DNA from: a virus
Lineage: Duplodnaviria; Caudoviricetes
DNA: 63,879 nucleotides
Virus record (IMG/VR): IMGVR_UViG_3300037088_000377
Location: 1-63,879 of that record
Strand: one strand, 5' to 3'
The position numbers and the translations under genes were made by a program. The notes beneath the pieces were generated by a model that saw only the letters and a program-made list of their open reading frames with translations, was not told the DNA's origin and made no database searches. Shown piece after piece: positions 8,685-38,247 of the stretch. Position 1 is the stretch's first letter. Every line of letters begins with the position of its first letter.

Positions 8685-9331
8685 ATGTCCAAGTAAATTG
8701 CGGTGTCTACCGTTGGCTGAACACAATTAACGGAAAATCTTATGTGGGGAGTTCTAGAAACCTGCAAAAGCGAAAGAGTGAACATTTACGTTTTTTACAC
8801 TCTCATCGGCACCATAGCATTAAACTTCAACGAGCGTGGGATAAATATGGGTCAAATGCTTTTGAATTTCAGATACTTAAATCTTGTTTGAAGGAAAATT
8901 TGCTCGAACACGAACAGGTTACAATAAATGCTCTGGATGCTGTTAGCAATGGGTATAATGTAGCTTTAACTGCTGAAAGTCCAATGTATAACAGAAGGCA
9001 TTCGCAAGCAGCTAAAGATAAGATGAGTGCAGCCCATAAAGGACGCTCTTTTAGTTCTGAGCATAAACGAAAACTTGGTCTTGCCGCATTTGGACGTACC
9101 ATAAAGGTATCAGATGAGGGGGAAAAAAGACGAAGGGCTAACATAAAAGCTTTGTGGACATCAAGTGAGTTTAGAAATAAACAAAGTAAGGCTCGTTGTC
9201 AAGCTTGGGATAATGATGAGAAACGAAAAGAGACCGCTAGCGTTCGTAGCTATCTTAAAAATCACCAACGCTGGCATACGAGCCGAGGATTGGTAAATTC
9301 TGAATGCAGGCACTGTCAATTAGGAGAGTAA
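8678..9331 (+). CDS. GIY-YIG homing endonuclease with NUMOD3-like repeats
   Basis: GVYRWLNTINGKSYVGSS...R...E...GYN, then HSQAAKDKMS and FSSEHKRKLG. AT-rich relative to flanks. Confidence 0.9.
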   Translation: MVDVQVNCGVYRWLNTINGKSYVGSSRNLQKRKSEHLRFLHSHRHHSIKLQRAWDKYGSNAFEFQILKSCLKENLLEHEQVTINALDAVSNGYNVALTAESPMYNRRHSQAAKDKMSAAHKGRSFSSEHKRKLGLAAFGRTIKVSDEGEKRRRANIKALWTSSEFRNKQSKARCQAWDNDEKRKETASVRSYLKNHQRWHTSRGLVNSECRHCQLGE

Positions 9332-21370: not shown

Positions 21371-21420
21371 AAAATTTCTTGGATTTTTGGTCCGAAGTGG
21401 TGTATAATATAGGTGGAGGG
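21371..21420 (+). promoter_or_regulatory. Putative early promoter fused to an RBS, consensus RAATCCYY-N~20-TGTATAMTATRRGTGGAGG
   Basis: Copies at about 2000-2045(-), 5543-5590(-), 6000-6045(-), 8305-8355(-), 20713-20740(-), 20745-20795(+), 23405-23430(+), 46239-46285(+), 47641-47690(+), 48548-48595(+), 48779-48825(+) and 50518-50565(+). Each has an extended -10 (TG-TATAAT or TG-TATACT); the upstream AATCC element is degenerate or absent in some. Confidence 0.75.
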
Positions 21421-21424: not shown

Positions 21425-22324
21425 ATGACAAAAAAGATACCGTGGAAGAGGATAGAAGCAACGCCTGGTCTTACTTTTCCAGAAGCGACCCTTGGGACAG
21501 AGTACTTCAGCGGAGGGAATCCGCAGGACCAGACTGACCGGCTTATCAAGGAGCTTATTCCTAACTCTAAGGATGCCAGTACCAATGGCTTTATAGAGAT
21601 TGCCATCTCCATAGGAGAAGTTTCTGGAGACGCCATACGCAGGCATTTCGGGGACCTTTCCGATGACCTAAAGGCTGAGGGAGCCACTGGCAGAGCAAGA
21701 TACCAGCACATTGATATGGATGCCGACCGTATCCGTGCGATGGTGTTTGAGGATTTTGGCACCATGGGTTTGGCAGGAGACATCCACAATACCGTGATAG
21801 CAACGAAGAAAGACCTCGAAGGCAACAACTGGGGGGGGTTTTGGTTCTTGGATGGAGCTTCCTCGGGGGCAGGGAAAGGTGGCAGGGGGGGAAAGCACGG
21901 GATAGGGAAGAACTCGCTTCTCCTGAATAGTGGCATCAGTGCCTTTGCGGTGAACACTGTATGGAACCCATCGAAGGGATTGGGTAATTTTGACCTGTTG
22001 ATGGGGCGTGCTGCTCTGTTTACTCGAAAAGTCAAGGAAAAGGTGTATCTTCCCCCTGCATGGATGTGCGAGAATCCTACAGCAGTGAACTTCGCACCGT
22101 TGCCTATCGAAGATGTGGTGACCATCGACCAGTTCCGCAAGGACTTCGGGTTGGTCAGAACGAACGGAGAGGCAGGAACCAGTATCGTTGTCCCGTTCCT
22201 CAACGAACAGATAACCATAGACACCGTGGAAGCGGCAGTGGCTACGCAGTTCACAAGGCTCCTGCTTGAAGGTAAGGTAAGGTGCGAGATAGGACCGATA
22301 GGAGGATTGAGCCATGGCAAGTAG
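21425..22324 (+). CDS. GHKL (Hsp90/MORC-like) ATPase domain protein
   Basis: N box LIKELIPNSKDA, G1 FEDFGTMGL, G2 GKGGRGGKHGIGK, G3 GTSIVVP. Confidence 0.75.
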   Translation: MTKKIPWKRIEATPGLTFPEATLGTEYFSGGNPQDQTDRLIKELIPNSKDASTNGFIEIAISIGEVSGDAIRRHFGDLSDDLKAEGATGRARYQHIDMDADRIRAMVFEDFGTMGLAGDIHNTVIATKKDLEGNNWGGFWFLDGASSGAGKGGRGGKHGIGKNSLLLNSGISAFAVNTVWNPSKGLGNFDLLMGRAALFTRKVKEKVYLPPAWMCENPTAVNFAPLPIEDVVTIDQFRKDFGLVRTNGEAGTSIVVPFLNEQITIDTVEAAVATQFTRLLLEGKVRCEIGPIGGLSHGK

Positions 22325-23381
22325 CATACTGGATAGCAACACCATCCTGCCGCTGCTCGAAGGAAAGCTCATAGAGCATAAGGACGGAGTTGGGGAGACT
22401 GGATTCATCGTTCTAGCAAGGCTTATGGAGTTTTACCTGAAAGGCAGCGGAGCGAACCTTGTCCTCCAGCAAACTATGCCCTCGACGGCGTGGCGGGGAG
22501 ATTTCGTCCTAGTCCAAGGAGCCTATGAGGACTCTTGGGGCAGGCTATGCAAGGGACAGCCCATAGAGGTAAGGGTACAGACCACGATTGCAAGGACGGA
22601 CGGGACCAAGCAGGGGACTTACATCACAGTCCTCTTGATGCATGACCCTGACCGGCTTTGGCGACCTCATGTGAGTCGGAATGGGCTTCCAATCACTGAA
22701 GCGTGCAGTGGGCAAAACCGCAGTGAGTATATCGTCGAGATACTCGTTGACGACGACCCCATAGCCGAGTTTGTGGGAGATGCTGAAGACCCCTCCCATC
22801 GCAAGCTGAACACCAGGGAACTCAAGACGAAGTATGAGAATGCTGACAGGATGCTGGAGTTCGTAACTGGTGCGGCTGTGGGGATTCTCAAACGGCTGCG
22901 GCCACCAGACACGAAAATCAACCGTGATGCATTCGCAGACTTTCTCCCCGCTCCTGGGGCTGTCCCCGCTGCACCTGACCCTCCTCTTGCTGGTAAGGGC
23001 AAGGGCGGGATGGAAATTCCTCACGGAAATAGTGATGACCCAGTATGCCTCAGTTACAAGGACGGGGTTCTGGAGATAGGGCAGAATGGAGACATCGTTC
23101 CTCGTCGTTTTATCATCAAGGCGAGCTTCCATGGGCTTCCTCACGATAGGAACGACTTCGATTTCAAGAACATGGAGGATTCCGAAGACATCGAGTATGA
23201 AGGAATCAAGCGCATCGAAGCACTTTCATCCAACAGGCTCTTGGTGATTCCTAAGAAAAAAAATGCCAAGAAGTTTCGTTTGACCATCAAGGGGTTGGAT
23301 GACGAGACGGCGCTTCGCCAACTCGATGTTCGTGTCAGGGCCACGTTAAATGACGAAGAGAAAGAGGGGGATGAGGAATAA
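22314..23381 (+). CDS. Hypothetical protein, probably the C-terminal half of a split GHKL protein
   Basis: Overlaps the GHKL ORF and has its own GGAGG RBS; contains FVGDAEDPSH. Confidence 0.6.
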   Translation: MASSILDSNTILPLLEGKLIEHKDGVGETGFIVLARLMEFYLKGSGANLVLQQTMPSTAWRGDFVLVQGAYEDSWGRLCKGQPIEVRVQTTIARTDGTKQGTYITVLLMHDPDRLWRPHVSRNGLPITEACSGQNRSEYIVEILVDDDPIAEFVGDAEDPSHRKLNTRELKTKYENADRMLEFVTGAAVGILKRLRPPDTKINRDAFADFLPAPGAVPAAPDPPLAGKGKGGMEIPHGNSDDPVCLSYKDGVLEIGQNGDIVPRRFIIKASFHGLPHDRNDFDFKNMEDSEDIEYEGIKRIEALSSNRLLVIPKKKNAKKFRLTIKGLDDETALRQLDVRVRATLNDEEKEGDEE

Positions 23382-23435
23382 TCTCCTCCAATCCCGTATC
23401 CAGAAATGTATACTACATACAGAGGAGGAAAGGCT

Positions 23436-24281
23436 ATGGAAGCAGGCACAGCAACAGCGGAGGAAAAACAGGGGAAGAAGGTAAAGCCCTGCGTTAAGAT
23501 GAGCCTCAGCGGTCTGAAGGTAGAAAACCTCCCCCAGTCCTCGGTCATCGTCCGAGTGACAGATGACGGAAAGAGTGCGGAATTCGACCTGTCCGCCATT
23601 AGGAAGAAACTATCTTCCTATGCTGATGAAATCGAAGTGCATCTTATTGTGACGCATTCCGACGCCGACAGGTTCCAAGCACGGCATAGGATGGGAACTT
23701 GGAAGGACATCGAAAACAACATCAGGATACCCATCCCCGATAGGTTGCCACCGAAAGGGCTGCGCTTTGAGCTACGGATGGTGGACGAGGCTAACTATGG
23801 GAGAATCCGAGGAACGTGCAAGGACCTAAGGCTTCCGCAGCTTACGGAGGGGAGCCTTCTATGTCTAGCCGTGGATATGGACTTGGGGGGTATTCCGTAC
23901 ACATTGCGTTATCCCGTTGGGGACTATCCGAGATTGGTTCTGTCCTCTGACCTTCTAAAGGCGGCGGGAGACCAGACCGTAGACGAGTACATGAGCCTAC
24001 TGGACAACCAAGTGAAGATTTTCCTGCCCGCAGTCCACAGGGTCCTTTCTCACATCGCTAGGAAGATGGGGATGGAAGGAAGGGAAGAATTAACTTCAGA
24101 GGAAGAGAACTGGGTAGTAGCCTTCGAGAAGTACGGCGCTCCACCAGAGGAATCCGACGAGCCTGCGACCATGGCTGTCATGGAGAAAGAAGAAGATTGG
24201 GTTTACTGTGTAGTATCACAGTGGGCCAAGGGAACAAGGTTCATGGAGGGATTCGTGAGGAGAGGAGAAAAGCAATGCTGA
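23436..24281 (+). CDS. Hypothetical protein of the GHKL operon
   Basis: GGAGG RBS; 281 aa. Confidence 0.7.
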   Translation: MEAGTATAEEKQGKKVKPCVKMSLSGLKVENLPQSSVIVRVTDDGKSAEFDLSAIRKKLSSYADEIEVHLIVTHSDADRFQARHRMGTWKDIENNIRIPIPDRLPPKGLRFELRMVDEANYGRIRGTCKDLRLPQLTEGSLLCLAVDMDLGGIPYTLRYPVGDYPRLVLSSDLLKAAGDQTVDEYMSLLDNQVKIFLPAVHRVLSHIARKMGMEGREELTSEEENWVVAFEKYGAPPEESDEPATMAVMEKEEDWVYCVVSQWAKGTRFMEGFVRRGEKQC

Positions 24282-25060
24282 TGAGGATACGGAGATTCAA
24301 CCAGAGGGGGCTGGACAAGATACGGGAGGTCTACGCTAGTATCCGACAGACCGGCGTGATGCCAGACCAAGGGCAGAGAACCACAATCTTGATTGATGGC
24401 AACCTTACGGAGGAGTTACGCCCTGCGGCAAGCATCGACCCCGACAGGCGGTTTGCCTTAAGTTTTGAGTTGGGGCACCATTTGTCAGATGCCGTAGGGG
24501 CTGCCGGGCTGATGTTCAGAAAGGAGGAGTGGGAATGGCTGAGGTTTTTGTACTTGGACCAGATTTGCCAGAGGAATAAGAAGGGGAGTTCCTGGAATCC
24601 TCCCCAAGACGAGCACATCGCTGGACGGAGGGGTCGCCACAAGATTAGGACAGCCTACGAACTGTATGAGGGTGCAAAAGACATGGATGAAGCGGATAAG
24701 AGTATCTTGTCTAAGATTCCGCTGCAACAGGGAACCAGCGACGTATGGGATGTTATCTTTGCAGTGAAGTTCCCAATGTTACAGTATCACGAGGTGCTGT
24801 GGGCAATGACTATGGTGTACGTGAATGAGGATGGTGCCCTTCGTAAAGGGTTGAGCAGCAGGTCTCCGTGGGCTTCTAGGTACTTCCCTCGCTCTCTTGC
24901 GCATAACGCTGCCTACGGATTCGACTTTTCCTTCCTTGACCGGTATGCAGTTCTGGCGATGCTGCCCAAGAAGAACTTCGGAACGCTTTTGTCGAAACTC
25001 CCGAGGAAGGACAGGGACAGGGTCGAGGAAGCCAGAAACAGGTTAAAAAGGGTTCGGTAA
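24275..25060 (+). CDS. Hypothetical protein of the GHKL operon
   Basis: MLMRIRRFNQRG...WEWLRFLYLDQIC; overlaps the previous gene. Confidence 0.7.
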   Translation: MLMRIRRFNQRGLDKIREVYASIRQTGVMPDQGQRTTILIDGNLTEELRPAASIDPDRRFALSFELGHHLSDAVGAAGLMFRKEEWEWLRFLYLDQICQRNKKGSSWNPPQDEHIAGRRGRHKIRTAYELYEGAKDMDEADKSILSKIPLQQGTSDVWDVIFAVKFPMLQYHEVLWAMTMVYVNEDGALRKGLSSRSPWASRYFPRSLAHNAAYGFDFSFLDRYAVLAMLPKKNFGTLLSKLPRKDRDRVEEARNRLKRVR

Positions 25061-25086: not shown

Positions 25087-25449
25087 ATGGCAAAAAAGCA
25101 TATGACTATCAGAATGCGTATAAAGGGCACGAGGGCGGTACTCCGGTCAAAAAAGACTCCCGCCCATACCAAACCGGGGCTACAGAAGTACTTAGATGGG
25201 CTGCTCACCCCCAAGCATTCCATACCCCTGACCACACGGATAAAGGGCACAGTGGCTTCATTGGGCTCCCCCCATACCCCGGAGATTTTCAAGAAAGGGG
25301 CAGAGGAGAGAGTGAGCCTCCTTCTTGAACAGCGCCTTGAGGAGCTTTTCGGATGCGACCAAGCTCGTCTTCAACGCTTCTTCTCGAAACTTATTGGCTA
25401 TGACCAGTCCGTTCCCAAAAACTTTTTCTCTAAACTTGTTGGACGCTGA
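25087..25449 (+). CDS. Small basic protein with an internal duplication
   Basis: GGAGG RBS; RIKGTRAVLRSKKTP and RIKGTVASLGSPHTP. The 3' part overlaps the methyltransferase gene antisense. Confidence 0.5.
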   Translation: MAKKHMTIRMRIKGTRAVLRSKKTPAHTKPGLQKYLDGLLTPKHSIPLTTRIKGTVASLGSPHTPEIFKKGAEERVSLLLEQRLEELFGCDQARLQRFFSKLIGYDQSVPKNFFSKLVGR

Positions 25450-26415
25450 CTGGTCAACCATTTCTATTCTTTCACCTAGCCACCTCATTACTGGCACAGC
25501 CATGCTGTTACCAAGTGCCATGTAGCGTAGCATGTCGGGGCACTCCTCCTCGGGTCTACCTTCCCAAGATATCCGGGTGAAGTTGTCTTCGAATCCCATA
25601 AGCCTTTCCCACTCGACAGGAGTGAGGTGGCGGGTTCTACCGTCAGCCTCGGTGATGTAAGTCTCAGACGTAGGATTGTAGCAGCCTATACCTCGTGCTT
25701 TAAGGCAGAAGGAGAGACTTCCTCCGTTGGTAGTTAATTCTGAGTATTGACTGCTCTTTGGAGAGATTCTCGGAGTCTTGGGTACAGGTTGTAAGCTGTC
25801 TTCCCCATTGCCTTGTACTTCTTCTCCCGATTCAGGAGTCCTTGGGCCGCTTTCTTCCCCAAATAAAACTTCCCAGGCAGGTTGGCTATCTCCAAGATAC
25901 CCCACAACGAACACTCTTTTGCGTCTTTGGGCGACCTCGAAGAATCTAGCATCCAGCACCCTGTAAGCGAACCCGTACCCGCATTTGCCCAATTCCCAGA
26001 GGAAGGCTCCAAAATCGTGATGCTTTGTCCCGTTTTCAGCTTCAAGCGAATTGGAGGACAGAACTCCGGGGACGTTCTCCCAGAGGACCCAGCGTGCCCT
26101 GGACCTCTTGGCAAGTTTGCAGAAAGCCAGCATAAGGCTTCCTCGTTCGTCGGAGAGACCTTGTTTTTTACCGTTAATGCTGTAGGGCTGGCAGGGGGTT
26201 CCTCCGACGAGCAGGTCGATTTTAGAGTCTCTGAATTTCTTTTTTCTTTCAAGGGTCGTCATGTCTCCTAAGTCTTCAATGGTGGGAAACCTATTGTGCA
26301 GTACTGCTTTGGGGAACTTCTTTATCTCCGAGAACCAAGCAGCTTTCCATCCAAGTGGCTCCCAAGCGACGGTGGTCGCCTCGATTCCGCTGCAAACGCT
26401 GCCATAGGTTATCAT
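25258..26415 (-). CDS. DNA (cytosine-5) methyltransferase
   Basis: Motif I SVCSGIE, IV GGTPCQ, VI WENV, VIII QRRKRVF, IX RHLTPVEWERLMGF, X ALGNS. Confidence 0.92.
   Translation of the reverse strand: MITYGSVCSGIEATTVAWEPLGWKAAWFSEIKKFPKAVLHNRFPTIEDLGDMTTLERKKKFRDSKIDLLVGGTPCQPYSINGKKQGLSDERGSLMLAFCKLAKRSRARWVLWENVPGVLSSNSLEAENGTKHHDFGAFLWELGKCGYGFAYRVLDARFFEVAQRRKRVFVVGYLGDSQPAWEVLFGEESGPRTPESGEEVQGNGEDSLQPVPKTPRISPKSSQYSELTTNGGSLSFCLKARGIGCYNPTSETYITEADGRTRHLTPVEWERLMGFEDNFTRISWEGRPEEECPDMLRYMALGNSMAVPVMRWLGERIEMVDQSASNKFREKVFGNGLVIANKFREEALKTSLVASEKLLKALFKKEAHSLLCPFLENLRGMGGAQ
25734..26252 (-). CDS. Alternate-frame ORF nested in the C5 methyltransferase (putative beta-like subunit)
   Basis: Ends CSLWGILEIANLPGKFYLGKKAAQGLL, resembling the SL.DILE...KYYLS segment of C5 methyltransferases. 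True start unknown. Confidence 0.5.
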   Translation of the reverse strand: MKEKRNSETLKSTCSSEEPPASPTALTVKNKVSPTNEEALCWLSANLPRGPGHAGSSGRTSPEFCPPIRLKLKTGQSITILEPSSGNWANAGTGSLTGCWMLDSSRSPKDAKECSLWGILEIANLPGKFYLGKKAAQGLLNREKKYKAMGKTAYNLYPRLRESLQRAVNTQN

Positions 26416-26441: not shown

Positions 26442-27473
26442 TTACTTTAGAAGCGTCTTGGCCTTGGCATCGGCAATCAACTCGTCGAAGCTTTCTAAGA
26501 CTTCCTCACACTCTGCTTTGATGGCGGTAATCTTCTGGTCACGTGCCACTTTAACTGATGCTTTTTGCATCTCTAAAATTTGAATCGCCCTTGTCATACC
26601 CTTGCTTTTTAATGGGGTTAAACTTGTCGGTGTCGCCTTCTTAGTTTCATATCTTTTGCGCCTTTCTTCCGACCAAGTCCGTTTGGTGGGAGATGGCGTC
26701 ACGGTGGTTTCTACAGTTCCTACTGCTGTGGTCACATCATTCGTATTCATAGTTGTTTTCTCCTTAGGTACTAATACTGCTTCCATGACCTTTCCTCTCT
26801 TTCTCGACTTGGACGATGAACATCCCGATGAGCGCCGGGATGACCCAGACGACAGAATTCCCGCAGCACTTAACTCTGTCCACCCATTTGGTATACCCAT
26901 GAACTGTTCGCAGGCTTCGGCGGTAGGCATTAAATTCGGATTCTTCTGGAGTATTGCTCTGGCCAGCATTTCCTGTGCCCAACTGGCGCTTCCAGTAATC
27001 CCAGTATTGGCTTTTTTCCTTAATCTCCCCCCAGAAGTTATCGGGAAGGTCTTTCTGAAAGACCAGTTTGACTTCTTCAAAAGAATTGCGGTGGCTGAAG
27101 GGGTAGTTGTTACAAGCGATAATCCAGACACGGGGTCGAGAGTGGGGGATTCCGAAGACCTCACTCTCCAATATGGTCGTCCCCCAAGCGTAGCCTTCTT
27201 TTTCCAAGTCGGAGAGGACCCTGTCCCCATCTGACGTATGCAAAAGTCTAGCCACGTTTTCAACGATGACCCAAGGTGGGCGGATTTCTCGGATAAGCCT
27301 GAGAAAGTGGTACCAGAGCCCGGATGTAGAGGTTGGCTGTTCGGGGGTGCCGATACCGAGCTTTTTTCTTCCTGCACCAGAAATACTGGTGCAGGGGAAT
27401 CCCCCTGACAGGATGTCAACATGTCCAAGCTCTTCTCCCTTGCACTGCTTAATATCCTCATACTGTCGTACAT
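26442..27473 (-). CDS. Alternate-frame ORF carrying methyltransferase motif IX, in frame with a separately startable 102-aa basic coiled-coil ORF (26442-26750)
   Basis: PTAEACEQFMGIPNGWTEL is motif IX-like. An internal TAAGGAG RBS precedes MNTNDVT. Confidence 0.6.
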   Translation of the reverse strand: MYDSMRILSSAREKSLDMLTSCQGDSPAPVFLVQEEKSSVSAPPNSQPLHPGSGTTFSGLSEKSAHLGSSLKTWLDFCIRQMGTGSSPTWKKKATLGGRPYWRVRSSESPTLDPVSGLSLVTTTPSATAILLKKSNWSFRKTFPITSGGRLRKKANTGITGSASWAQEMLARAILQKNPNLMPTAEACEQFMGIPNGWTELSAAGILSSGSSRRSSGCSSSKSRKRGKVMEAVLVPKEKTTMNTNDVTTAVGTVETTVTPSPTKRTWSEERRKRYETKKATPTSLTPLKSKGMTRAIQILEMQKASVKVARDQKITAIKAECEEVLESFDELIADAKAKTLLK

Positions 27474-27612
27474 CGGGCCAATGCTTCTTCAGGATAGCTT
27501 TAGGGTAGGGGGCAATCTCTACCTGGAAGACCGTCTTGATTTCAGGGGACACCTCAAGACCCCAGTCTATCATCCCCACGCCTGAAAACAGGCTGCCGTG
27601 CTTAAGTGTCAT
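26764..27612 (-). CDS. DNA (cytosine-5) methyltransferase alpha-type polypeptide lacking motif IX
   Basis: SLFSGVG, GGFPC, VENV, HSRPRVWI and RVKCCGNSVV; no motif IX in this frame. Confidence 0.88.
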   Translation of the reverse strand: MTLKHGSLFSGVGMIDWGLEVSPEIKTVFQVEIAPYPKAILKKHWPDVRQYEDIKQCKGEELGHVDILSGGFPCTSISGAGRKKLGIGTPEQPTSTSGLWYHFLRLIREIRPPWVIVENVARLLHTSDGDRVLSDLEKEGYAWGTTILESEVFGIPHSRPRVWIIACNNYPFSHRNSFEEVKLVFQKDLPDNFWGEIKEKSQYWDYWKRQLGTGNAGQSNTPEESEFNAYRRSLRTVHGYTKWVDRVKCCGNSVVWVIPALIGMFIVQVEKERKGHGSSIST

Positions 27613-27650: not shown

Positions 27651-29423
27651 CTAGCGGTTGGCGCGTGAGACAAACAAAGATTCAAATGACGGCTCGTCTA
27701 TCTTGACGATGAAGCTCCCGAGGATATCTGGGTCGGTTCTGTAAAGGTGCCCCTCTTTCATCATCTTTCGCTTGGAGTACCCCGACCCAATGGGGGATGA
27801 CTTATCCACCAAGCTGTGAATCCACGCCGCCATAGCCGCTTCTCTGCTGTCCTTGGACCCCATCAACGCCCGTGCCGCCCGACTCATTCCCCGGCGCACA
27901 TCCGGCCTGTGCAGCCCGAGGACATCCGCCACCTGCTGGAACGACCTGTACTTTGAATACTCGATAATAGCCCTGGACAAACCTCCTTTGAGAGAGTCCT
28001 CCAGCCCCGCCTTGGTCAGTACTTGCGACAAGACCTCAACAGTAGGCTCTCCGAAGAGCAGGAAAGCGCCAATGACCCGGATGGCCATACGGATGCGGAA
28101 TGAGCATACCGTCTGGGTAGATTTGAAGATGGTGGCCAGCGTGGTTTGGGTGTTGTGGGTGGGAATCATACTCTTACCACATAAATAAAGGTGGGAGGGG
28201 GAATCCACGGTGAGACAACGCATCAGCTTGGGTGCAACCTTAGTTACCTTATTGATATGATGGCTAAGCGAATCTCCCTTAAGATTTAACCGTTTTTGTC
28301 TGGCTAACTTTCTCGGTAAGCGAAAACACGGGACGGTAGTGGTAAACGCTGTTCCCCATCCATCGGAGTAACGCTTTTCCCCTTTGTAAATGCAATAGCT
28401 CCGCTTGGGTCTGAATTGATGTTTGATGCCTAATGACCATAGTAGTTCGTCAATTCCTCCTATGATGGCGGGCGAACAGTTTGTAAATGAGCATGTACCC
28501 AACTTAGTACATGAGCCATCTGTGTCCATTAGACCTTGGAGTAGAGCTAACCTTTGGCGTGCGGAGGCACGTAAGTATATTGACGGGATATGCTTGTTCT
28601 TTATAACTCCGAGCTTCTTTAGGGAAGACCAGAGACCCAAGATATGCCAACGCTGTGGGTCTTTGTCACTCTGATACCACTTATACCCAGCAGCCGAAAA
28701 ATGAGACAGTATTTCTTTGACATCTTCAGCGCTTCCTGTCAGGATGCCGCAATCGCTGTTTCCATCCCCAAGCCAAGCTCCAAGACAATATGGGTCCACA
28801 AGCAGGGGTTGGTCCGGCAATTCCAACTCATGCGTAAGGGCAATATGGTGATTCGCCAGGTATTTACCCTGTCTTGAACTTGCACAGTAGCGTTGTGTTT
28901 CGTATATCTCCTGTGTGGTACGGACAGTTTTGTCTAAACGGTACACATTTCTATGCTTGGCATTTTGACGGTCATTGTAGGTTGTCGTAAGCCAAAGATG
29001 GTCGTTCCCTGCATAGAGTTTTTCTCCAGTGTCCAATTCAATTTCATAAGTTATATCGGGGTAGCAAGTCGGATGAGCTTTCAATACACGAGTCGGCAGT
29101 CCGTTATCGTCAAGCACCAAGTCCCCGTCTACAATGTCCCCGTTACGTTTCCATCCATCAGGGGTGGGTATCGGGGTATCAACATCCAATAACTTTCCCA
29201 AGAGATAATAGGATAAAAGTATATCCTGGTCCTCCTGGCTGAGGTACTTGAGCATCTTCAGGAACCCTGTAAAGTTCTCCTGGATGTAGGTGAAGATGTC
29301 ATCCTCTTGGAGGTCCCGCTGAGTCTCCAAACTTATCGTTGTAGCCCCCTCCAGCGCCTCCTCTTCGCTTAACAGGAGAGACCTAGCACTGGTAATTGAG
29401 GTCATATACGGGGTTTGCTCCAA
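27651..29423 (-). CDS. Tandem sigma70-region-4-like HTH protein interrupted by an intein
   Basis: Joined exteins read LSQEDQDILLSYYLLGK|TQTTLATIFKSTQTVCSFRIRMA; a second HTH reads SFQQVADVLGLHRPDVRRGMSRA. Confidence 0.7.
   Translation of the reverse strand: MEQTPYMTSITSARSLLLSEEEALEGATTISLETQRDLQEDDIFTYIQENFTGFLKMLKYLSQEDQDILLSYYLLGKLLDVDTPIPTPDGWKRNGDIVDGDLVLDDNGLPTRVLKAHPTCYPDITYEIELDTGEKLYAGNDHLWLTTTYNDRQNAKHRNVYRLDKTVRTTQEIYETQRYCASSRQGKYLANHHIALTHELELPDQPLLVDPYCLGAWLGDGNSDCGILTGSAEDVKEILSHFSAAGYKWYQSDKDPQRWHILGLWSSLKKLGVIKNKHIPSIYLRASARQRLALLQGLMDTDGSCTKLGTCSFTNCSPAIIGGIDELLWSLGIKHQFRPKRSYCIYKGEKRYSDGWGTAFTTTVPCFRLPRKLARQKRLNLKGDSLSHHINKVTKVAPKLMRCLTVDSPSHLYLCGKSMIPTHNTQTTLATIFKSTQTVCSFRIRMAIRVIGAFLLFGEPTVEVLSQVLTKAGLEDSLKGGLSRAIIEYSKYRSFQQVADVLGLHRPDVRRGMSRAARALMGSKDSREAAMAAWIHSLVDKSSPIGSGYSKRKMMKEGHLYRTDPDILGSFIVKIDEPSFESLFVSRANR
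28152..29192 (-). mobile_element. Class 3-type intein with LAGLIDADG endonuclease (347 aa)
   Basis: Starts LLDVDTPIPTPDGW; DHLW, MRCLTVD, PTHN/T; LGAWLGDG and LLQGLMDTDG. Confidence 0.88.
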
Positions 29424-32008: not shown

Positions 32009-32160
32009 CCGCCCGTATTCCTGGGGTAGACTTCTCTCCATTTGTGTGTCTCCAATCATCCGATGTTCAGGAAGAAACGCCCTGACTTGGCGCAACGAAA
32101 TAGAGCTAGAGGAGAGGAAAATTATAAGAGGAAAAACGAATAATGATGACATCAACCTTA

Positions 32161-32826
32161 ATGCCCGCCTCCCCCTTAGTTTCATGCTTAACTCCAACTT
32201 ACAATCGGCGTGATTTCTGGCCGAAATGTATCCAATGTTTCCTTTCGCAGGACTACACCAATTTAGAATGGGTAATTGTTGATAATAGTGAAACCCCCAT
32301 CAAGGACCTCCTCCCCGCCGACCCCCGCATCCGGTATGTCCGGCACCCCGGAGAACGCCTGTCCCACGGGAACCTCATGAACCTGTGCATGGGATGCTCC
32401 ACGGGCGCTCTGGCGTGCGTTCTTGACGATGACGACTGGTATGCCCCGGACAGGGTCAGGAAGCAGGTTCAACCACTCATAGATAATCCCGCAAAGGACA
32501 TCGTAGGGACGAGTCGGCTATTTTATTACGTCTTAGGAACCCAGAAGGCATTTCGGTATGTCAACCAGACTCACCAGAAGTGGCTGGCCGCACCCGCTTG
32601 GAGGCGGTCGGCTTGGGAGAACAACAAGTTTGACAACCTCACACGTGGGGCGGACACAAACTTTATGAACCGGATTCCTAAGAATCGCTGGGTGGACTTG
32701 GAGGATGAGCGGCTGATAGCAAGCACGATACATCCCGGAAATGCATCGCCAAAAAGGCTGCTTCCGCCTTCTTTTGTAGGAGTACCTTGGGCAAGCGTGG
32801 AAGAAATCACGAAAGGAACACTGTAG
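32161..32826 (+). CDS. Glycosyltransferase family 2
   Basis: VSCLTPTYNR, VIVDNS, LDDDDWY, GAD. Confidence 0.88.
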   Translation: MPASPLVSCLTPTYNRRDFWPKCIQCFLSQDYTNLEWVIVDNSETPIKDLLPADPRIRYVRHPGERLSHGNLMNLCMGCSTGALACVLDDDDWYAPDRVRKQVQPLIDNPAKDIVGTSRLFYYVLGTQKAFRYVNQTHQKWLAAPAWRRSAWENNKFDNLTRGADTNFMNRIPKNRWVDLEDERLIASTIHPGNASPKRLLPPSFVGVPWASVEEITKGTL

Positions 32827-32840
32827 AGTAGGAGAACAAC

Positions 32841-33815
32841 ATGAAAAAGGCACTCGTCTGTGGAGCAGGGGGCTTCATTGGTGGTCACCTGATAAAGAGG
32901 TTGAAACGAGAGGGTTATTGGGTTCGTGGCGTGGATATCAAGGAGCATGAATTTTGTCCGACCGCTGCAGACACATTCTTTCGTCTTGACCTTCGAGATA
33001 AATATAGTTGTCACGCTGCACTCAGCTTAGACACGGAGAAGTTTGATGAGGTCTATCAGTTGGCCGCCGATATGGGTGGGATGGGCTTCATACATTCTGC
33101 TGAGTGTGAAATCATGCATAACAATGCACTGATAAACATTCATATGACGCAGGCAGCGGCGACAATGGGCATCTCTCGGTACTTCTTCTCTTCGTCTGTC
33201 TGCGTCTACCGTGATATGATATTCGGAGAGCCGGAAATGATGGAAACAGAGGCCACTCCCGCCAATCCGGACAATGAGTATGGGTGGGAAAAACTCTATT
33301 CTGAGCGTGTGGCAATGGCATACGAGCGCCGCTATGGGGTGCAGGTGCGTATCGCCCGCTTCCAGAACTGCTATGGTGCGGAGGGTACTTGGCGTGGGGG
33401 GCGGGAAAAGGCTCCTGCGGCCATCTGTCGCAAGGTGGCTGAGGCTGCGGATGGGGATACGATTGAGGTTTGGGGTGACGGAACCGCTGTGCGCTCATAC
33501 ACACACGTCAACGATATGGTTGACGGCATTTTTAGGCTTATGCATTCCGACTTGCACGGAGCTGCCAATATCGGGTGCCCGCAGTATGCGACAGTGAATG
33601 AACTGGTGGCTACGGTTGCCGATGTAGCCGGTAAGAAAATCTGTATTACACACATCAACGGTCCGGTCGGTGTTCAATCCCGTAACTTCAGCAATGCCCG
33701 CATCTACTCAACGGGTTGGAAACCCAAGATATTCCTTAAAGAGGGCATCCAACTAACCTACCCTTGGATTGAGACCCAAGTCAAAGCGGCTGAGACCGTA
33801 AAAGGAACCCTATGA
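32841..33815 (+). CDS. NAD-dependent epimerase, GDP-mannose 3',5'-epimerase-like
   Basis: GAGGFIG, LAADMGGMGFI, YGWEK and GGREKAPAAICRK, a GME-type signature. Confidence 0.85.
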   Translation: MKKALVCGAGGFIGGHLIKRLKREGYWVRGVDIKEHEFCPTAADTFFRLDLRDKYSCHAALSLDTEKFDEVYQLAADMGGMGFIHSAECEIMHNNALINIHMTQAAATMGISRYFFSSSVCVYRDMIFGEPEMMETEATPANPDNEYGWEKLYSERVAMAYERRYGVQVRIARFQNCYGAEGTWRGGREKAPAAICRKVAEAADGDTIEVWGDGTAVRSYTHVNDMVDGIFRLMHSDLHGAANIGCPQYATVNELVATVADVAGKKICITHINGPVGVQSRNFSNARIYSTGWKPKIFLKEGIQLTYPWIETQVKAAETVKGTL

Positions 33816-34450
33816 GTAATCCCCGCCTGCTCATCGCCATCACCAGTTGTCATAAACACAGGGAGTGGCAATTTGCACAAAGGCAAACATGGGTACGGGA
33901 CATACCCCACGGGGTATCCTATCGGTTCTTCCTCGGCAACCCCATCGTTCAGGATGCTTTGGAAGACGAGGTCTTCTTGGACGCCCCGGACGACTACTCG
34001 TTAATACCCGTTAAGATGAAGGGTATCTTCCAGTGGGCATTGGATCAAGGGTTTAACTTTGCCTTCAAGGTGGACATTGACACCTTGGTAAATGTCCAAA
34101 ACCTTTTGGATAGTGGGTTCGACAAGCATGATTATGTCGGCGGTCTTTATAGCCAAGGGGTCGCTACCCCGTTCGCCAGCGGAGGGTCGGGATTCATGCT
34201 GAGTGAGAAGGCGATGCGTCTCGTAGTAGAGGAGCCTGTAAGAGATGACGGGTATGACGACGTGCTTGTGGCTTTGGCGATGAAGAGAGGCAATATTCCT
34301 TTGCATGCCGACAGCAGGTATAGGTTTTCCCCCGGATACACGATGGACGGGAAAGGTATCTCCTATCATCTTAGCTCCATCTCTAAATGGAAGGAGAGTT
34401 ACTTCCCAACAGTGATGTTTGAGAAATACTTGGAGATGAAAAGGCTATGA
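33812..34450 (+). CDS. GT31/Fringe-like glycosyltransferase
   Basis: RQTW, DDY...K, FKVDIDT, SGGSGFMLS, DDV. Confidence 0.75.
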   Translation: MSNPRLLIAITSCHKHREWQFAQRQTWVRDIPHGVSYRFFLGNPIVQDALEDEVFLDAPDDYSLIPVKMKGIFQWALDQGFNFAFKVDIDTLVNVQNLLDSGFDKHDYVGGLYSQGVATPFASGGSGFMLSEKAMRLVVEEPVRDDGYDDVLVALAMKRGNIPLHADSRYRFSPGYTMDGKGISYHLSSISKWKESYFPTVMFEKYLEMKRL

Positions 34451-35229
34451 GCTTATCGAGCGGCTTTACATTAGAACAGGAAAGAAGACAAGAGGAGCTT
34501 CAATCAATGTTCCAGAACGCCCGCCGTGGGATGAACTTCGGGATGGGTGGCGGGTTTGAGTCTAGCGGAGAATATCAAGCGATTCAAAAAATAAGAGGTG
34601 AATTGCTGAAAAAGTATTGTGAGCCCTATATTTTGTTTGATGTGGGAGCTAACGAAGGGGAATACACCCGGTTTTTATCGAACATCTTTGCTGGCGAGGC
34701 GGTAATTCACGCTTTTGAGCCATCGTTAGGTACCTTTGAGGTCCTGCGGCAGCGGCTTGGCGAGGCGGCTGAGCTTCACCGGCTAGCCTTCGGGGAACAA
34801 AGTGGTTTCGCTTTGCTATACTCAAATAGTAACTCCGGGCTTTCGTCTTTCTATAACCGCAATCTTAAACATTTTGGGATAGTGTTGGACAAGACGGAGA
34901 GTATTTCTGTACTGACACTCGACGAATTTTGTCAAACGATGGGCATCCAGCATATCCACTTTCTGAAGATGGATGTTGAAGGACATGAGCTTCAGGTTCT
35001 CAAGGGAGCTAAGAAGATTCTGGAGCAACGGGGGGTTGACTTCATCCAGTTTGAGTTTGGTGGATGCAATATCGACTCAAGGACCTTCTTCCAAGACTTT
35101 TTCTATCTGCTCTCTCCTCAATATCGCCTCTTCCGAGTCCTGGCAGACGGCTTGTGGCCGGTAGAGTCTTACAGGGAGTCGGAGGAATTTTTTGACGGTC
35201 CGACTAATTACATGTGTGAACTTATATGA
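34447..35229 (+). CDS. FkbM-family SAM methyltransferase
   Basis: FDVGANEG, HAFEP, LKMDVEGHE. Confidence 0.9.
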   Translation: MSLSSGFTLEQERRQEELQSMFQNARRGMNFGMGGGFESSGEYQAIQKIRGELLKKYCEPYILFDVGANEGEYTRFLSNIFAGEAVIHAFEPSLGTFEVLRQRLGEAAELHRLAFGEQSGFALLYSNSNSGLSSFYNRNLKHFGIVLDKTESISVLTLDEFCQTMGIQHIHFLKMDVEGHELQVLKGAKKILEQRGVDFIQFEFGGCNIDSRTFFQDFFYLLSPQYRLFRVLADGLWPVESYRESEEFFDGPTNYMCELI

Positions 35230-35242
35230 AAAAGAAAATTCT

Positions 35243-36061
35243 ATGATAGTGCGTCTTAAAGGGGGACTCGGCAACCAGATGTTCCAGTATGCCTTCGGGA
35301 GGTCAGTGTCGCTGGCAAAGAAGGAGGACCTGTTCTTCACCCGTGATTACTGTGACTCCGACCCCAAGAGGTGCTACGCTTTGGGGGTCTTCGATGTCCC
35401 AATAAAATTTGTGTCGGAACCTAAAAACCCTGTATACCACGAATCCCCCTTTTCCTTTAATCCACAAGTCTATACGATGCCAAAAAACGTGCTGTTTGAG
35501 GGGTACTGGTTTACAGAGAAGTACTTCAATAGGCCTATTATAAGAGTTTGTTTTTCTCCCCGTACTATGAGCGACAAATCCCAAGCGGTGGCGGAAGAGA
35601 TTATCTCTCTTGATGAGAAGAGCGCCTTCCTGCATATCCGTAGAACAGACTTCACAACGCTATCAGAATACCATACGAACCTGACGATGAATTACTATGC
35701 CGCCGCCATGAAGCTTATCTGCCAGAAGGTTCCGAACGCCAAATTCTTCGTCTTCTCCGACGACCCTGAATGGTGCAAGGTGGCTTTTCCCTCCGAGTTT
35801 ACGGTTGTGGCTCACAATAAGCCGGGCGGCAGGATGTTCGGCTCTGACCAGTCAGGCACGGAGCACGAGGATTTGTGGTTGATGAGCCTGTGCCGTCATG
35901 CCGTCATCGCTAATAGCTCATTTTCATGGTGGGGTGCTTGGCTGGGGGACGAGCAGGAAAACAGGATTGTGGTGGGTCCAAAGCGGTGGTTCGGTCCCGC
36001 CCTTGCTGGCTTGGATACCGGGGACATCACCCCTGAGAGATGGATAAAGGTGGGATACTGA
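35243..36061 (+). CDS. GT11 alpha-1,2-fucosyltransferase-like protein
   Basis: GGLGNQMFQY, HIRRTD, FSDD, IANSSFSWWGAWL. Confidence 0.9.
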   Translation: MIVRLKGGLGNQMFQYAFGRSVSLAKKEDLFFTRDYCDSDPKRCYALGVFDVPIKFVSEPKNPVYHESPFSFNPQVYTMPKNVLFEGYWFTEKYFNRPIIRVCFSPRTMSDKSQAVAEEIISLDEKSAFLHIRRTDFTTLSEYHTNLTMNYYAAAMKLICQKVPNAKFFVFSDDPEWCKVAFPSEFTVVAHNKPGGRMFGSDQSGTEHEDLWLMSLCRHAVIANSSFSWWGAWLGDEQENRIVVGPKRWFGPALAGLDTGDITPERWIKVGY

Positions 36062-36064
36062 ACA

Positions 36065-36778
36065 ATGGAAACAAGCAGAGTTATCATAACCACCGCACCG
36101 GGAGAAGATAGGCACCGTCCTGGAAGACCATTTGCTGATAAGCTAAAGCGGTGGACGGTGGGGTTTCTAACATACGGAGAGGATGCGGCGATATTGGTCT
36201 ATAAGGTAGTGCCTTCTGGCTGCCCGAAGCCGGAAGACATACCGTATGCATCTAAGGTCTACGCCGTTCAAGCAGCAGTAAGGGCGGGGTTCACATCAAT
36301 CCTGTGGGCGGATACGTCTGTCGTGGCGTGCAGGTCGCTTTCGCCGATATGGGAACTGGTGGAGAGGGTCGGGTATTGGTTTCCACGTGCTCCCCAGCCA
36401 AATGTGGGAAACTGGACCAGCGATGCAGCCCTGCCCTTGCTGGGTATCACCCGTGAGCAGTCATTTAAGATTCCGAAGCTCGCTACACATTCGTTAGGAT
36501 TGGACCTCAAAACGAATATTGCCCGTGACTTTCTCTCCCAGTGGATGGATGCGGCTAATAACGGATCATTCCGTGGGGCGTGGACCAACAATAACCATGA
36601 GGTCTCCCAAGACCCCCGAGTCTGTGGGCACAGGCATGATTTGTCCGCAGCGTCAGTTATAGCCGATAGGCTAGGAATGACCGCCACAACGGGAGCTTTC
36701 CTGACTTATGAGAGTCAAATACCCGAAACCATCTTAAAGACAGACTACGGACTGGAGGAAAAGTGGATGAGGCTCTGA
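36065..36778 (+). CDS. Putative GT-A fold glycosyltransferase
   Basis: YASK...LWADTS...HRHDLS motifs; position inside the glycan cluster. Confidence 0.5.
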   Translation: METSRVIITTAPGEDRHRPGRPFADKLKRWTVGFLTYGEDAAILVYKVVPSGCPKPEDIPYASKVYAVQAAVRAGFTSILWADTSVVACRSLSPIWELVERVGYWFPRAPQPNVGNWTSDAALPLLGITREQSFKIPKLATHSLGLDLKTNIARDFLSQWMDAANNGSFRGAWTNNNHEVSQDPRVCGHRHDLSAASVIADRLGMTATTGAFLTYESQIPETILKTDYGLEEKWMRL

Positions 36779-37356
36779 TTGGGTTCATCCCTACGACCTC
36801 CTTGCCGAACGACTGGGGCTATACGATAAAGCACGCTACAATCGTAGAGTACGCCAAAATATTCGGCTTGAATATCCTCGTCGAAACCGGCACTTACTTG
36901 GGGCTAACCGTCTCTGCCATGCTCCCGTATTTTTCCAACATTTATTCGATAGAACTAGGACTCAATTTCTATGCGCGTGCAAAGTACATATTCAACGGGA
37001 ATCCCAAGGTTCACCTGTTTTTGGGGGATAGCGGGAAGGTTCTAAAGGAGATGCTCCCCCTGTTGACCAAAAAACCCCTCTTCTGGCTAGACGCCCATTA
37101 TTCCGCAGGTGATACGGCACGGGGAGACATTGACACCCCGATTTTGCAAGAATTGGACACCATATTTTCCTTGTGTCCGAGCTGTGTTATCCTGATTGAC
37201 GATGCCAGGGAGTTCAATGGAATAAACTCTTATCCAACACTGCCAGACTTGGAGAGCTACGTCTTGGGCAGACTCCCAACCTGGGTGTTTGAAATCAAGG
37301 ATGACATCATCCGACTCCATGAAAAGACGAATCCTCTGGTTTGCAGATTCGGCTAA
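36763..37356 (+). CDS. Class I SAM-dependent methyltransferase-like protein
   Basis: LVETGTYLG, SIEL, GDS, FWLDAH, ILIDD. Confidence 0.75.
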   Translation: MDEALIGFIPTTSLPNDWGYTIKHATIVEYAKIFGLNILVETGTYLGLTVSAMLPYFSNIYSIELGLNFYARAKYIFNGNPKVHLFLGDSGKVLKEMLPLLTKKPLFWLDAHYSAGDTARGDIDTPILQELDTIFSLCPSCVILIDDAREFNGINSYPTLPDLESYVLGRLPTWVFEIKDDIIRLHEKTNPLVCRFG

Positions 37357-37374
37357 GGAAGACTCAAAAAGCGT

Positions 37375-38247
37375 ATGGCTCAGATAAATGTTATTCTTGC
37401 TAACGGTCTAGGAAACCAAATGCTTCAATATGCCTTTGGGCGGGCGCACCAGTTGCGGGGCCATACCGTAACCTTTAGCCTGAATCCTGATGGCTGCCAT
37501 AATAGAGAAGATTCCCGACTGTGCCTCCCGCTCAGGTCTCATGAGGTCTACGGGCTTGACCTGCTCAACACCAAGGTGGAATTTGGACCTCGGCTAGAGT
37601 TTGGTCCCTGGCGGATGGAAAACTATGTCTATGCGGAAGTAGCCTTTGACCCCAAGTGGCTGAAAATAGAGCACCCTACGAATGTGTACGGGCTGTTCTG
37701 GAGTGAGGATTACTTCAAGGAGTTCCAAGACACGATACGGAAGGAGTTTCTGCCTGCTCCCTCTCTTTTCATTCCTCCTGAAGCGGAAGCTCTTGCCGCA
37801 AAGATGAGAAACTCCAATAGCGTATTCGTGCATGTAAGGCGTAGCGATTGGTACCTCTCTCCACAAGGTGCGGAAGAGTGGCTCCTGATGAGCATGGAGT
37901 ACTATCAAAAAGCGGTGGCAAAAATCTCTGAGAGGTTCCCCTCACCGAATGTCTTCGTCTTTTCTGACAATGTCGGCTGGTGCAGGGAGAATATGCCAGG
38001 ATGGGAAACGGTTACCGTAGGGGGAGGGAGTCCCCAGATTGACCTCTGGTTGATGCGCCAATGCCGCCATGCCGTCATCGCCAACAGTTCCTTCTCGTGG
38101 TGGGGGGCTTGGCTCGGGGACAATCAGAAGGACAGGATGGTGGTGGGTCCTAGAAAGTGGTGGGCTAAAGCGGGGGGAGCGATTAAGGATGGAACTCAGG
38201 ATAGCCTGCACATCATGCCAGACCGGTGGGTGTGCTTGGATTCTTAA
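37375..38247 (+). CDS. Second GT11 alpha-1,2-fucosyltransferase-like protein
   Basis: GLGNQMLQY, HVRRSD, IANSSFSWWGAWL. Confidence 0.9.
   Translation: MAQINVILANGLGNQMLQYAFGRAHQLRGHTVTFSLNPDGCHNREDSRLCLPLRSHEVYGLDLLNTKVEFGPRLEFGPWRMENYVYAEVAFDPKWLKIEHPTNVYGLFWSEDYFKEFQDTIRKEFLPAPSLFIPPEAEALAAKMRNSNSVFVHVRRSDWYLSPQGAEEWLLMSMEYYQKAVAKISERFPSPNVFVFSDNVGWCRENMPGWETVTVGGGSPQIDLWLMRQCRHAVIANSSFSWWGAWLGDNQKDRMVVGPRKWWAKAGGAIKDGTQDSLHIMPDRWVCLDS

Follow-up and report, generated by a model that had tools for sequence, protein, structure and literature searches.

Background

Proteins that combine a GHKL ATPase domain with an S5 domain, the 'paraMORC' families, have been predicted to act in restriction-modification (RM) systems together with cytosine methylases and Vsr proteins (Iyer, Abhiman, & Aravind, 2008; PMC2292703). 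In the published description, paraMORCs do not carry the family-specific motif that unites the MORC proteins, paraMORC2 has an ExxxH motif late in its S5 domain, and the partners described are superfamily II (SFII) helicases and restriction endonuclease (RE)-fold nucleases. Here, we analyzed four open reading frames (ORF1 to ORF4) of a Caudoviricetes phage, IMG/VR record IMGVR_UViG_3300037088_000377, the complete 63,879 bases of which are called the window (CheckV completeness estimate 35%). An earlier sequence-only reading had described these ORFs as a four-gene operon in which the second ORF overlaps the first and which converges on two cytosine-C5 methyltransferase genes, and this layout was confirmed, with all four ORFs on one strand, as follows:

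21425..22324, plus strand: ORF1, 299 amino acids; ATG 5 nucleotides downstream of GGAGG
22301..22324, plus strand: split junction with AGGAGG, the ATG of ORF2 at 22314, the 11-nucleotide overlap and the stop of ORF1 at 22322-22324
22314..23381, plus strand: ORF2, 355 amino acids; +1 frame relative to ORF1, 11-nucleotide overlap; AGGAGG 7 nucleotides upstream
23436..24281, plus strand: ORF3, 281 amino acids; most likely start, with AGGAGG before it
24275..25060, plus strand: ORF4, 261 amino acids; most likely start; 7-nucleotide overlap with ORF3
25258..26415, minus strand: C5 methyltransferase M1, 385 amino acids; PF00145 (E 1.1e-46), phrog_116 (4.8e-72)
26764..27612, minus strand: compact C5 methyltransferase M2, 282 amino acids; PF00145 (E 4e-35), phrog_363 (2e-55, residues 1-275)

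M1 faces ORF4 convergently with 197 nucleotides between the two stops, and the PC and ENV motifs are readable in its translation. From the sequence comparisons reported below, we consider it very probable that ORF1 to ORF4 are an intact, split member of a methylase-linked gene family, A-B-C, which occurs in many bacterial phyla. For the more far-reaching interpretation, that they form an intact, probably working and long-resident copy of a methylation-linked restriction-type module which the phage puts to its own use, we see about an even chance.

Family A, to which ORF1 and ORF2 together correspond, resembles the paraMORCs in several respects. Its GHKL domain is N-terminal, has intact ATP motifs and precedes an S5-like domain, its genes neighbor cytosine methylases and Vsr, and it is distributed sporadically across phyla. 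As in paraMORC2, an ExxxH motif (E158 and H162 of ORF2) lies late in the S5 region, where it is invariant in 61 sequences. In contrast to the paraMORCs, family A carries a C-terminal beta-sandwich, its phage form is split, and a B-C pair stands where helicases and nucleases have been described (PMC2292703); the likeness is judged from the published description. For the 'MORC/GHKL' assignment of the sequence-only reading, this means that the MORC-like (paraMORC-like) architecture and the RM linkage hold, but that the label 'MORC' is too specific.

Antiphage activity has been shown for Tiamat and for VcSduA/paraMORC3, in which a GHKL ATPase is fused to a PD-(D/E)xK or a Shedu nuclease (bioRxiv 10.64898/2026.09.30.754977; PMC12137116). 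As these systems are described there, family A shares with them the N-terminal GHKL ATPase, the proposed dimeric clamp and, at some loci, methyltransferase neighbors. Unlike them, it has no recognizable nuclease on the same chain but two extra genes, and it is linked to cytosine methylases, whereas Tiamat and VcSduA are mainly linked to adenine methylases. A C-terminal nuclease of the Tiamat type (NOV_C/DUF3883) was not found, and neither ORF1 and ORF2 nor 24 fused relatives contained any Pfam family at E ≤ 0.01. Another described arrangement consists of HEF_HK/Response_reg_2 pairs with HATPase_c_3, which are linked to C5 methylases (Bellieny-Rabelo et al., 2021, PMC8011034). According to that description, both arrangements place a paraMORC-related GHKL gene and a conserved partner beside type II RM systems or C5 methylases. 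In our Pfam scans, no member of A, B or C matched PF19191, PF19192 or PF13589, and the HEF_HK pairs are a different family.

The defense database PADLOC contains one relevant model, PDC-M33, which belongs to 145 untested 'phage defence candidates' that were proposed through guilt-by-embedding, as outlined in the preprint of Payne et al. (2024; 10.1101/2024.01.29.577857). All 24 fused relatives tested matched PDC-M33A (E 7e-7 to 2e-40). This model has 627 positions and is similar in length to A, and most of the matches span its 270-300 N-terminal positions only. No PADLOC model, PDC-M33 included, matched B, C, ORF3 or ORF4, and in the literature searched the name PDC-M33 was not met. When the locus is compared with a classical type II RM system, the phage has two PF00145 genes and no known nuclease family in ORF1 to ORF4 (Pfam, PADLOC, PHROGs). 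We rated the phage module as a variant among the methylase-linked GHKL/paraMORC modules.

ORF1 as predicted GHKL ATP-binding domain

ORF1 to ORF4 did not match any model in Pfam, PADLOC, PHROGs or NCBIfam, and a relaxed Pfam threshold (E ≤ 1) yielded sub-threshold noise. A PDB sequence search with ORF1 gave nothing usable and a word-based search returned the phage's own protein only. Relatives were collected with HMMER by exhaustively searching the 1.84 billion representatives of a library that had been clustered at 50% identity; 937 sequences were obtained at E ≤ 1e-3 and 309 at E ≤ 1e-10. Most of them are 600-660 amino acids long and match ORF1 with their N-termini, and the closest cellular relative shares 33% identity. 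When ORF1 was aligned with 23 of these relatives (24 sequences), it kept all 18 invariant columns. Four motifs, E43..N47..D50-A51, E109-D110-x-G-T-x-G-L-x-G, G156..G159-x-G161-K162 and G251-T-S-I-V-V, fall entirely into invariant or near-invariant columns of this alignment. We read these residues as probable Bergerat motifs I-III, with the G-T-S-I-V-V strand fitting motif IV.

An AlphaFold model of ORF1 based on the 24-sequence alignment reached a pLDDT of 83.9 and a pTM of 0.87. Foldseek returned 159 PDB matches for this model at E ≤ 1e-3, and the 46 matches listed are Topo VI-B, Hsp90, TRAP1 and HtpG. In VIA, 432 chains were found at Z ≥ 8, among them SMCHD1 (6mw7_C, Z 12.1, root-mean-square deviation (rmsd) 3.8, 207 residues aligned) and Hsp90 N-domains with Z 11.5-12.1 (5uch_D, Z 12.1, rmsd 3.5, 169 aligned). 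Judged by motifs and modeled fold, ORF1 is a Bergerat-fold GHKL ATP-binding domain that corresponds to the N-terminal third to half of family A, and the N, G1, G2 and G3 boxes assigned to it in the sequence-only reading are borne out.

ORF2 as predicted remainder of family A

ORF2 was modeled with a pLDDT of 78.8 as two domains connected by a low-confidence linker:

ORF2 residues ~28-198: S5-like transducer, from the model; holds the invariant ExxxH
ORF2 residues ~234-351: C-terminal beta-sandwich, from the model; generic matches with Z 5-6.4

In VIA, residues ~7-198 matched MORC4 (7k7t_A, Z 6.2, rmsd 3.3, 101 aligned), MORC3 (5ix2_B, Z 6.2, rmsd 3.0, 100 aligned, chain residues 258-384) and MORC2 (Z 5.0), the three MORC matches spanning rmsd 3.0-3.3 and 97-101 aligned residues, and further the Topo VI-B transducer (Z 4.6). 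The MORC segments matched are those that follow the GHKL domain. The best Foldseek match was Topo VI-B (2q2e_B, E 4.9e-4, probability 0.54). ORF2 keeps R122, E158, H162, D281 and R335, which are invariant in the 61 sequences, and the E158-x3-H162 motif sits late in the modeled S5-like domain.

Several data sets indicate that ORF1 and ORF2 correspond to a single cellular protein. Among the 149 best relatives besides the phage's own protein, 125 are at least 580 amino acids long and match ORF1 with their first 260-300 residues. BLASTP aligned residues 122-223 of ORF2 with residues 402-498 of the best relative, the fused protein P0002 (E 2e-8). This offset is about the one predicted by a fusion of ORF1 with ORF2, and thus ORF2 is collinear with the C-terminal half of A. 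Genome loci were collected by a pattern scan with one genome per species, and the best 80 of 202 confirmed relatives were analyzed (loci carry our own numbers, L001 and so on). In 68 of the 80 loci, tblastn detected an ORF2-like sequence behind the ORF1-like part, and in 67 of them A (~640 amino acids) occupies one open frame; the other 12 loci gave no ORF2 match. In one pseudomonadotal genome (L045:8165), A is interrupted by an in-frame TAG within its S5-like region, and this is either a broken copy or a sequencing error. On the basis of sequence and model, ORF1 plus ORF2 is one protein A, composed of GHKL domain, S5-like transducer and beta-sandwich. That the first two ORFs are one protein in related loci, as stated in the sequence-only reading, is thereby substantiated by the single frames and the fused relatives.

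The split of gene A

The sequence-only reading had advised that the split at about 22320 be confirmed with reads. Positions 22314-22324 are spanned, with 0 differences and 0 gaps, by Logan contigs of four peat runs, each belonging to a different study, so that an assembly error does not explain the split. Over 4 kb, these contigs contain one single-nucleotide polymorphism, which is restricted to a single run. This sole variant (G>T at 21878) affects the lid region of ORF1, which was modeled with low confidence, and replaces Gly152 by Cys; the protein with this replacement is also recorded, as P0152. The exact 299- and 355-amino-acid products were found on 5 and 7 contigs, respectively, from three sources. 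The end of ORF1 follows closely on the final conserved block of the GHKL domain, at the point from which the sequence of the fused proteins becomes variable. The split is therefore real. Gene A has been cut exactly between the GHKL domain and the transducer, and the two parts are probably translated separately from overlapping, coupled frames.

No other split A was found in the 80 genome loci. When a profile of the C-terminal half was used, 14 proteins were scored (of 8000 candidates), and these were 12 fused proteins, 1 fragment on a 1.4-kb contig and the phage's own protein. Fourteen of the 149 best relatives are shorter than 400 amino acids and may be fragments or splits; these came without genomic context.

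A split gene might also be a decaying passenger, the split being a pseudogenising lesion and ORF3 and ORF4 drifting. The phage branch is long (4.53 changes per column in a quick tree), conserved residues have been lost from ORF3 and ORF4 (see below), no second split form was seen, and in L045 a bacterial A is broken by a stop codon. Nevertheless, we consider decay very improbable. None of the four frames is interrupted along 3.6 kb, although no relative is more than 33% identical, a consensus ribosome-binding site stands exactly at the split, and the overlap is typical of translational coupling. Every invariant residue of both A halves has been retained, the cut coincides with a domain boundary in a variable linker, codon usage and the GC content at third codon positions (GC3) are like those of real phage genes, and four studies recovered an identical sequence apart from one polymorphism in 4 kb. 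Since ORF2 has a ribosome-binding site of its own and both halves keep the family-invariant residues, the split is not an obvious pseudogenising lesion, which had been named before as an alternative. That ORF1 to ORF4 have been kept open with consensus ribosome-binding sites argues for selection; strong sites of this kind precede all four ORFs.

In phage T4 topoisomerase II, the GyrB-like ATPase subunit is divided into gp39 and gp60, which reassemble. Both cases are phage splits of a GHKL-type chain, but enzyme, cut site and biology differ, so that T4 provides a parallel only. In the phage locus, the ATP-binding and the transducer domain have become separate proteins without engineering, and this natural experiment is useful for dissecting the ATPase cycle.

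ORF3 and ORF4 are distant members of families B and C

In the cellular loci, A (~640 amino acids) is followed by B (~255 amino acids) and C (~245 amino acids), tightly spaced and on the same strand. With profiles, both B and C were detected in 53 of the 68 loci that have sufficient downstream sequence, and the order and tight spacing of the phage ORFs match this arrangement. hhalign aligned ORF3 with the B family at 96.3% probability (E 1.7e-9, 222 columns) and ORF4 with the C family at 99.2% (E 2.5e-19, 225 columns). The identity of ORF3 to B proteins is 13-18%, and the invariant Trp is kept. An ORF4-like gene was found by tblastn in 30 of the 80 loci, always in third position. The resemblance of ORF4 to hypothetical proteins of such loci, pointed out in the sequence-only reading, thus proved correct, ORF4 being a member of the C family.

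No Pfam, NCBIfam or PADLOC model exists for B or C, and their database relatives are all annotated as 'hypothetical protein'. One C homologue came near DUF6339 (19.6 bits, below the cut-off of 23.2). An Atlas search with ORF4 gave scores up to 0.87, which are leads without a family. B and C are not paralogues of each other (hhalign probability 0.2%). Co-folding of ORF3 with ORF4 gave 'weak support' for a complex, with a score of 0.60 versus 0.00 for the best control. Of 157 solved complexes, 116 reach the mark applied, as do 2 of 215 mismatched pairs; at scores up to 0.60, however, only 18 of the 157 solved complexes passed, and so did both of the passing mismatches. Since our own alignments were used, these counts are only roughly valid here. 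The runs agree in at least 62% of the contacts, and the partner pLDDT is at least 76.

The A-B-C operon and its genomic neighborhood

The 80 loci come from many bacterial phyla and a few archaea, Acidobacteriota among them (L013, L031, L049, L074). Scanning with our own hidden Markov model (HMM) revealed that 34 of the 80 loci have a C5 methyltransferase and 20 have Vsr. By our count, about 27 of the 36 methyltransferase ORFs lie within ~800 nucleotides of the operon ends. Among the 52 loci with wide flanks, a methyltransferase is present in 23 of 41 with B and C versus 2 of 11 without them. From sequence identity it can be seen that 23 of the 36 linked methyltransferases belong to one clade (≥35% identity over ≥300 amino acids) and 10 to a second, and this suggests that the larger clade is the dedicated partner of A-B-C. 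The convergent layout of the phage recurs in seven loci (L016, L019, L022, L032, L046, L069, L070). Quantification of Pfam families among 133 flanking proteins of 26 A-B-C loci yielded PF00145 within three genes in 12 loci and Vsr in 6 loci. The other neighbors include MvaI/BcnI, TdeIII, EcoRII-C and HNH nucleases, HamA with a helicase, Z1 with AIPR, PLD-SNF2 proteins, DruA, PIN toxins, integrases and resolvases. The proposed link of the ORF homologues to RM and defense loci was thus put to the test by neighborhood and HMM scans of the 80 loci, and it holds.

Neither B nor C was found in 12 of the 68 loci, mostly from one clade of Planctomycetota. This clade comprises 14 rows in which A stands without B, C or a nearby methyltransferase (L005, L012, L015, L017, L020, L025, L027, L037, L039, L044, L051, L058, L066, L068). 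In the quick tree it branches inside the A-B-C forms, which suggests that the partners were lost secondarily or relocated.

In 13 loci (L003, L007, L008, L009, L013, L016, L022, L036, L038, L046, L053, L069, L070), A is immediately preceded by a small conserved gene of ~75-80 amino acids in the same orientation, and in L062 this gene precedes the methyltransferase. In total, it is present in 14 of the 75 loci with at least 500 nucleotides of upstream sequence. The gene could encode a fourth component or a regulator. At E ≤ 0.01, no counterpart was detected in the phage window.

Company of this kind could also be expected if A-B-C were a helper of DNA metabolism, a MutL- or topoisomerase-like machine for the repair or processing of 5-methylcytosine-containing DNA (e.g., very-short-patch (VSP) repair), by which the phage would maintain its own methylated genome. 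The folds are akin to engines of the Topo VI-B, MutL and Hsp90 type, Vsr accompanies the methyltransferase in the 20 loci mentioned, HhH-GPD glycosylases occur in L003 and L009, and the phage has two C5 methyltransferases. The discussion of paraMORCs by Iyer et al. (2008; PMC2292703) includes the parallel to MutL in mismatch and VSP repair. We nonetheless judge a repair function unlikely. The distribution over phyla is patchy, and the neighbors are restriction nucleases, Hachiman, AIPR and Druantia-type genes, integrases and resolvases; this combination points to mobile defense cargo and not to housekeeping repair. Furthermore, 18 of the 41 wide-flank A-B-C loci have no nearby methyltransferase, and Vsr usually accompanies Dcm-type methylases anyway.

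According to another explanation, A-B-C would not restrict incoming DNA but serve as a methylation guard or addiction device. Once the neighboring methyltransferase or RM system is lost or inhibited, it would sense this and kill the cell or stop its growth; in a phage, it would stabilize the methyltransferase genes or time host shut-off. In several loci the methyltransferase is already paired with a nuclease (MvaI/BcnI in L007, EcoRII-C in L034, TdeIII in L009), so that A-B-C stands as a third party beside a complete RM system, and no nuclease was recognized in A-B-C itself. On the other hand, the 23-member methyltransferase clade has, with the exception of TdeIII in L009, no restriction nuclease among its scanned neighbors, which fits A-B-C as the partner of that clade, and no toxin-like domain was found in A-B-C. 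We consider a guard quite improbable, although sequence data do not separate it from the restriction-type reading.

Residence of the module in the phage

GC content, GC3 and codon usage of ORF1 to ORF4 fall inside the range defined by 29 further genes of the window. In the quick tree, the phage branch is the longest and is placed loosely beside a methyltransferase-linked clade (SH-aLRT 88, unstarred). The sequence-only reading had called the module captured. This is plausible since the family is overwhelmingly cellular, but the capture is not recent, because the relatives are distant (33% identity), codon use is phage-like and the branch is very long.

Among 50,697 GenBank phage records, neither blastn of the region nor tblastn of P0002 and ORF1 gave a match. 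An IMG/VR scan with ORF1 was also negative. The A alignment gave one partial IMG/VR match, a 187-amino-acid ORF in L082, which is not an A-B-C operon. Metagenomes scanned with ORF1 gave no match, near-identical records possibly being outside the scan. A plasmid search yielded six records with matches to the N-domain only.

The module was also considered as a counter-defense decoy, with the phage proteins, above all the free GHKL domain, mixing with a host M-A-B-C system and poisoning it, either through dead GHKL heterodimers or through diverged B and C proteins that titrate the host partners. The split releases a stand-alone dimerization and ATP-binding domain, a form seen in 0 of the 80 loci. 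The A halves retain their near-invariant residues, whereas such residues are partly missing from ORF3 and ORF4, and the family is present in soil phyla including Acidobacteriota, the phage being from peat. However, ORF1 has the full set of catalytic motifs, which a pure decoy does not need, and the nearest cellular relative is, at 33% identity, far for subunit mixing. All three genes have been kept in native order. We regard the decoy as unlikely.

Proposed function and mechanism

In our reading, A-B-C is the ATP-dependent 'restriction' side of a methylation-linked self/non-self system. We favor this because A-B-C resides in defense and mobile regions and because a C5 methyltransferase abuts it in about half of the loci, often together with Vsr. 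GHKL ATPases act as dimers. In the mechanism we propose for the phage, ORF1 and ORF2 would re-associate into an ATPase. By analogy with MutL, GyrB, Topo VI-B, Hsp90 and MORC, ATP binding would dimerize the GHKL domains and the dimer would clamp DNA, while the transducer would complete the ATP site, R122 of ORF2 being the candidate residue. Judging from genomic context, B and C would bind each other and the ATPase as heteromeric partner and would supply recognition or an effector/cleavage function. DNA with the right 5-methylcytosine marks, for instance phage DNA methylated by M1 or M2, would be spared, and unmethylated host DNA or DNA of co-infecting phages would be the target. The phage may turn the module on host or rival DNA or employ it for counter-defense.

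A number of observations weigh against this restriction-type reading. The main gap in the mechanism is that no nuclease or other effector domain was recognized in A, B or C (Pfam, PADLOC, NCBIfam, PHROGs), which leaves the 'restriction' step without an identified catalyst, and the A, B and C profiles gave nothing usable when compared with the PDB. The S5 match of ORF2 is middling (Z ~6), and neither ORF1 nor ORF2 matched PDC-M33A at E ≤ 0.01. ORF3 and ORF4 are just 13-23% identical to bacterial B and C proteins. The N-terminal N-x-T-x-R motif of B is missing from ORF3, and ORF4 keeps G12 and H122 but is changed at several near-invariant positions such as Q211 and E233 of C. In view of this divergence and of the lost residues, ORF3 and ORF4 may work differently or not at all. 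The methyltransferase enrichment rests on the abutting position and, as control, on the comparison with A-only loci, and the A-B-C loci lacking a nearby methyltransferase (18 of 41, see above) count here as well. M1 and M2 fall outside both operon-linked methyltransferase clades (25-31% identity), and thus their adjacency to ORF1 to ORF4 is suggestive but no proof and perhaps a coincidence. Phages often carry methyltransferase genes.

A more general proposal is possible but, in our opinion, doubtful: bacteria and archaea may widely possess an as yet unnamed immune system, M-(D)-A-B-C, that is linked to 5-methylcytosine and in which a paraMORC-like clamp and two partners of new fold replace the classical restriction enzyme, and the split version of the peat phage may be an offensive weapon. 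If this were true, the phage DNA would be marked by its two C5 methylases and the module would attack the unmethylated host chromosome or rival phages, and the cut between the domains would let the phage control ATPase activity via assembly from two polypeptides. GHKL ATPases (MORC, Tiamat, GHKL-Shedu) are increasingly recognized as drivers of immunity in bacteria as well as in plants and animals, and the mechanism of the methylase-linked paraMORCs has been an open prediction since 2008. A-B-C offers a concrete and very common module, with two partner families for which no model exists and a dedicated C5 methylase clade, which is directly testable, and the phage copy places such a module in a virus.

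Other features of the window

The stretch is present in 17 listed runs, which are peat metagenomes; there is no RNA run among those listed. Proteins of the window recur on contigs as long as 201,562 bases. One protein of the structural region has a partial match (42% identity) to Tunturi_5, a 308-kb Tunturiibacter phage. According to the family scans, the cargo is typical of a phage, with homing endonucleases, inteins, endonuclease VII, a peptide deformylase and a block of sugar-modifying enzymes.

Upstream of ORF1 there is a candidate promoter:

21379..21408, plus strand: promoter-like site TTGGAT-18 nucleotides-TATAAT, candidate only

The sequence-only reading had called it an early-type promoter, and this assignment did not stand. 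The sequence is present, but TTGGAT agrees with the consensus TTGACA at just 3 of 6 positions, and nothing marks the site as early. A consensus promoter scan gave 4 sites versus 4.0 expected, and the 21379-21408 site was not among them. With up to two mismatches, the TTGGAT-18-TATAAT pattern occurs 6 times in the window versus 3.45 expected, and 6 or more occurrences were seen in 13 of 100 shuffles; thus, the site is not above chance.

ORF4 is followed by a 120-amino-acid ORF (25087-25449, plus strand). Its ribosome-binding site is GGAGG, and it overlaps, on the opposite strand, the tail of M1, which is not conserved. It contains a 14-nucleotide direct repeat, the copies of which lie 120 nucleotides apart (25117, 25237) and give rise to a repeated R-I-K-G-T peptide. 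This candidate fifth gene has no relative in the 80 genome loci. Over M2, a 343-amino-acid ORF in another frame (26442-27473, minus strand) shows a methylase-like motif by eye. It is probably spurious, since it matched no methyltransferase HMM or Pfam family. A frameshift in M2, which this overlapping ORF had led us to suspect, was ruled out because the 282-amino-acid frame carries both the N- and the C-terminal parts, the other frame being without a match. Our own HMM used for this check included M2 itself; phrog_363 concurs.

The phage is rich in selfish elements. A 590-amino-acid ORF (27651-29423, minus strand) contains a LAGLIDADG intein (PF14528 and intein-type PHROG matches). By eye, its flanks resemble the region 4 helix-turn-helix of a sigma-type factor, and the intein seems to split a DNA-binding helix. 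Two large intein genes (43103-46210 and 59522-62320, both minus strand) have LAGLIDADG_3/Hom_end and Hint/Intein_splicing matches, and further genes of this category encode a GIY-YIG protein (8678-9331) and endonuclease VII (62392-62862). Nine same-strand genes (32143-40702, plus strand) include four of the glycosyltransferase type (GT2, Galactosyl_T and two GT11), a sugar transferase with a DXD motif, an NAD-dependent epimerase/dehydratase, and FkbM-type and other methyltransferases. This run looks like a phage-borne polysaccharide-modification cluster.

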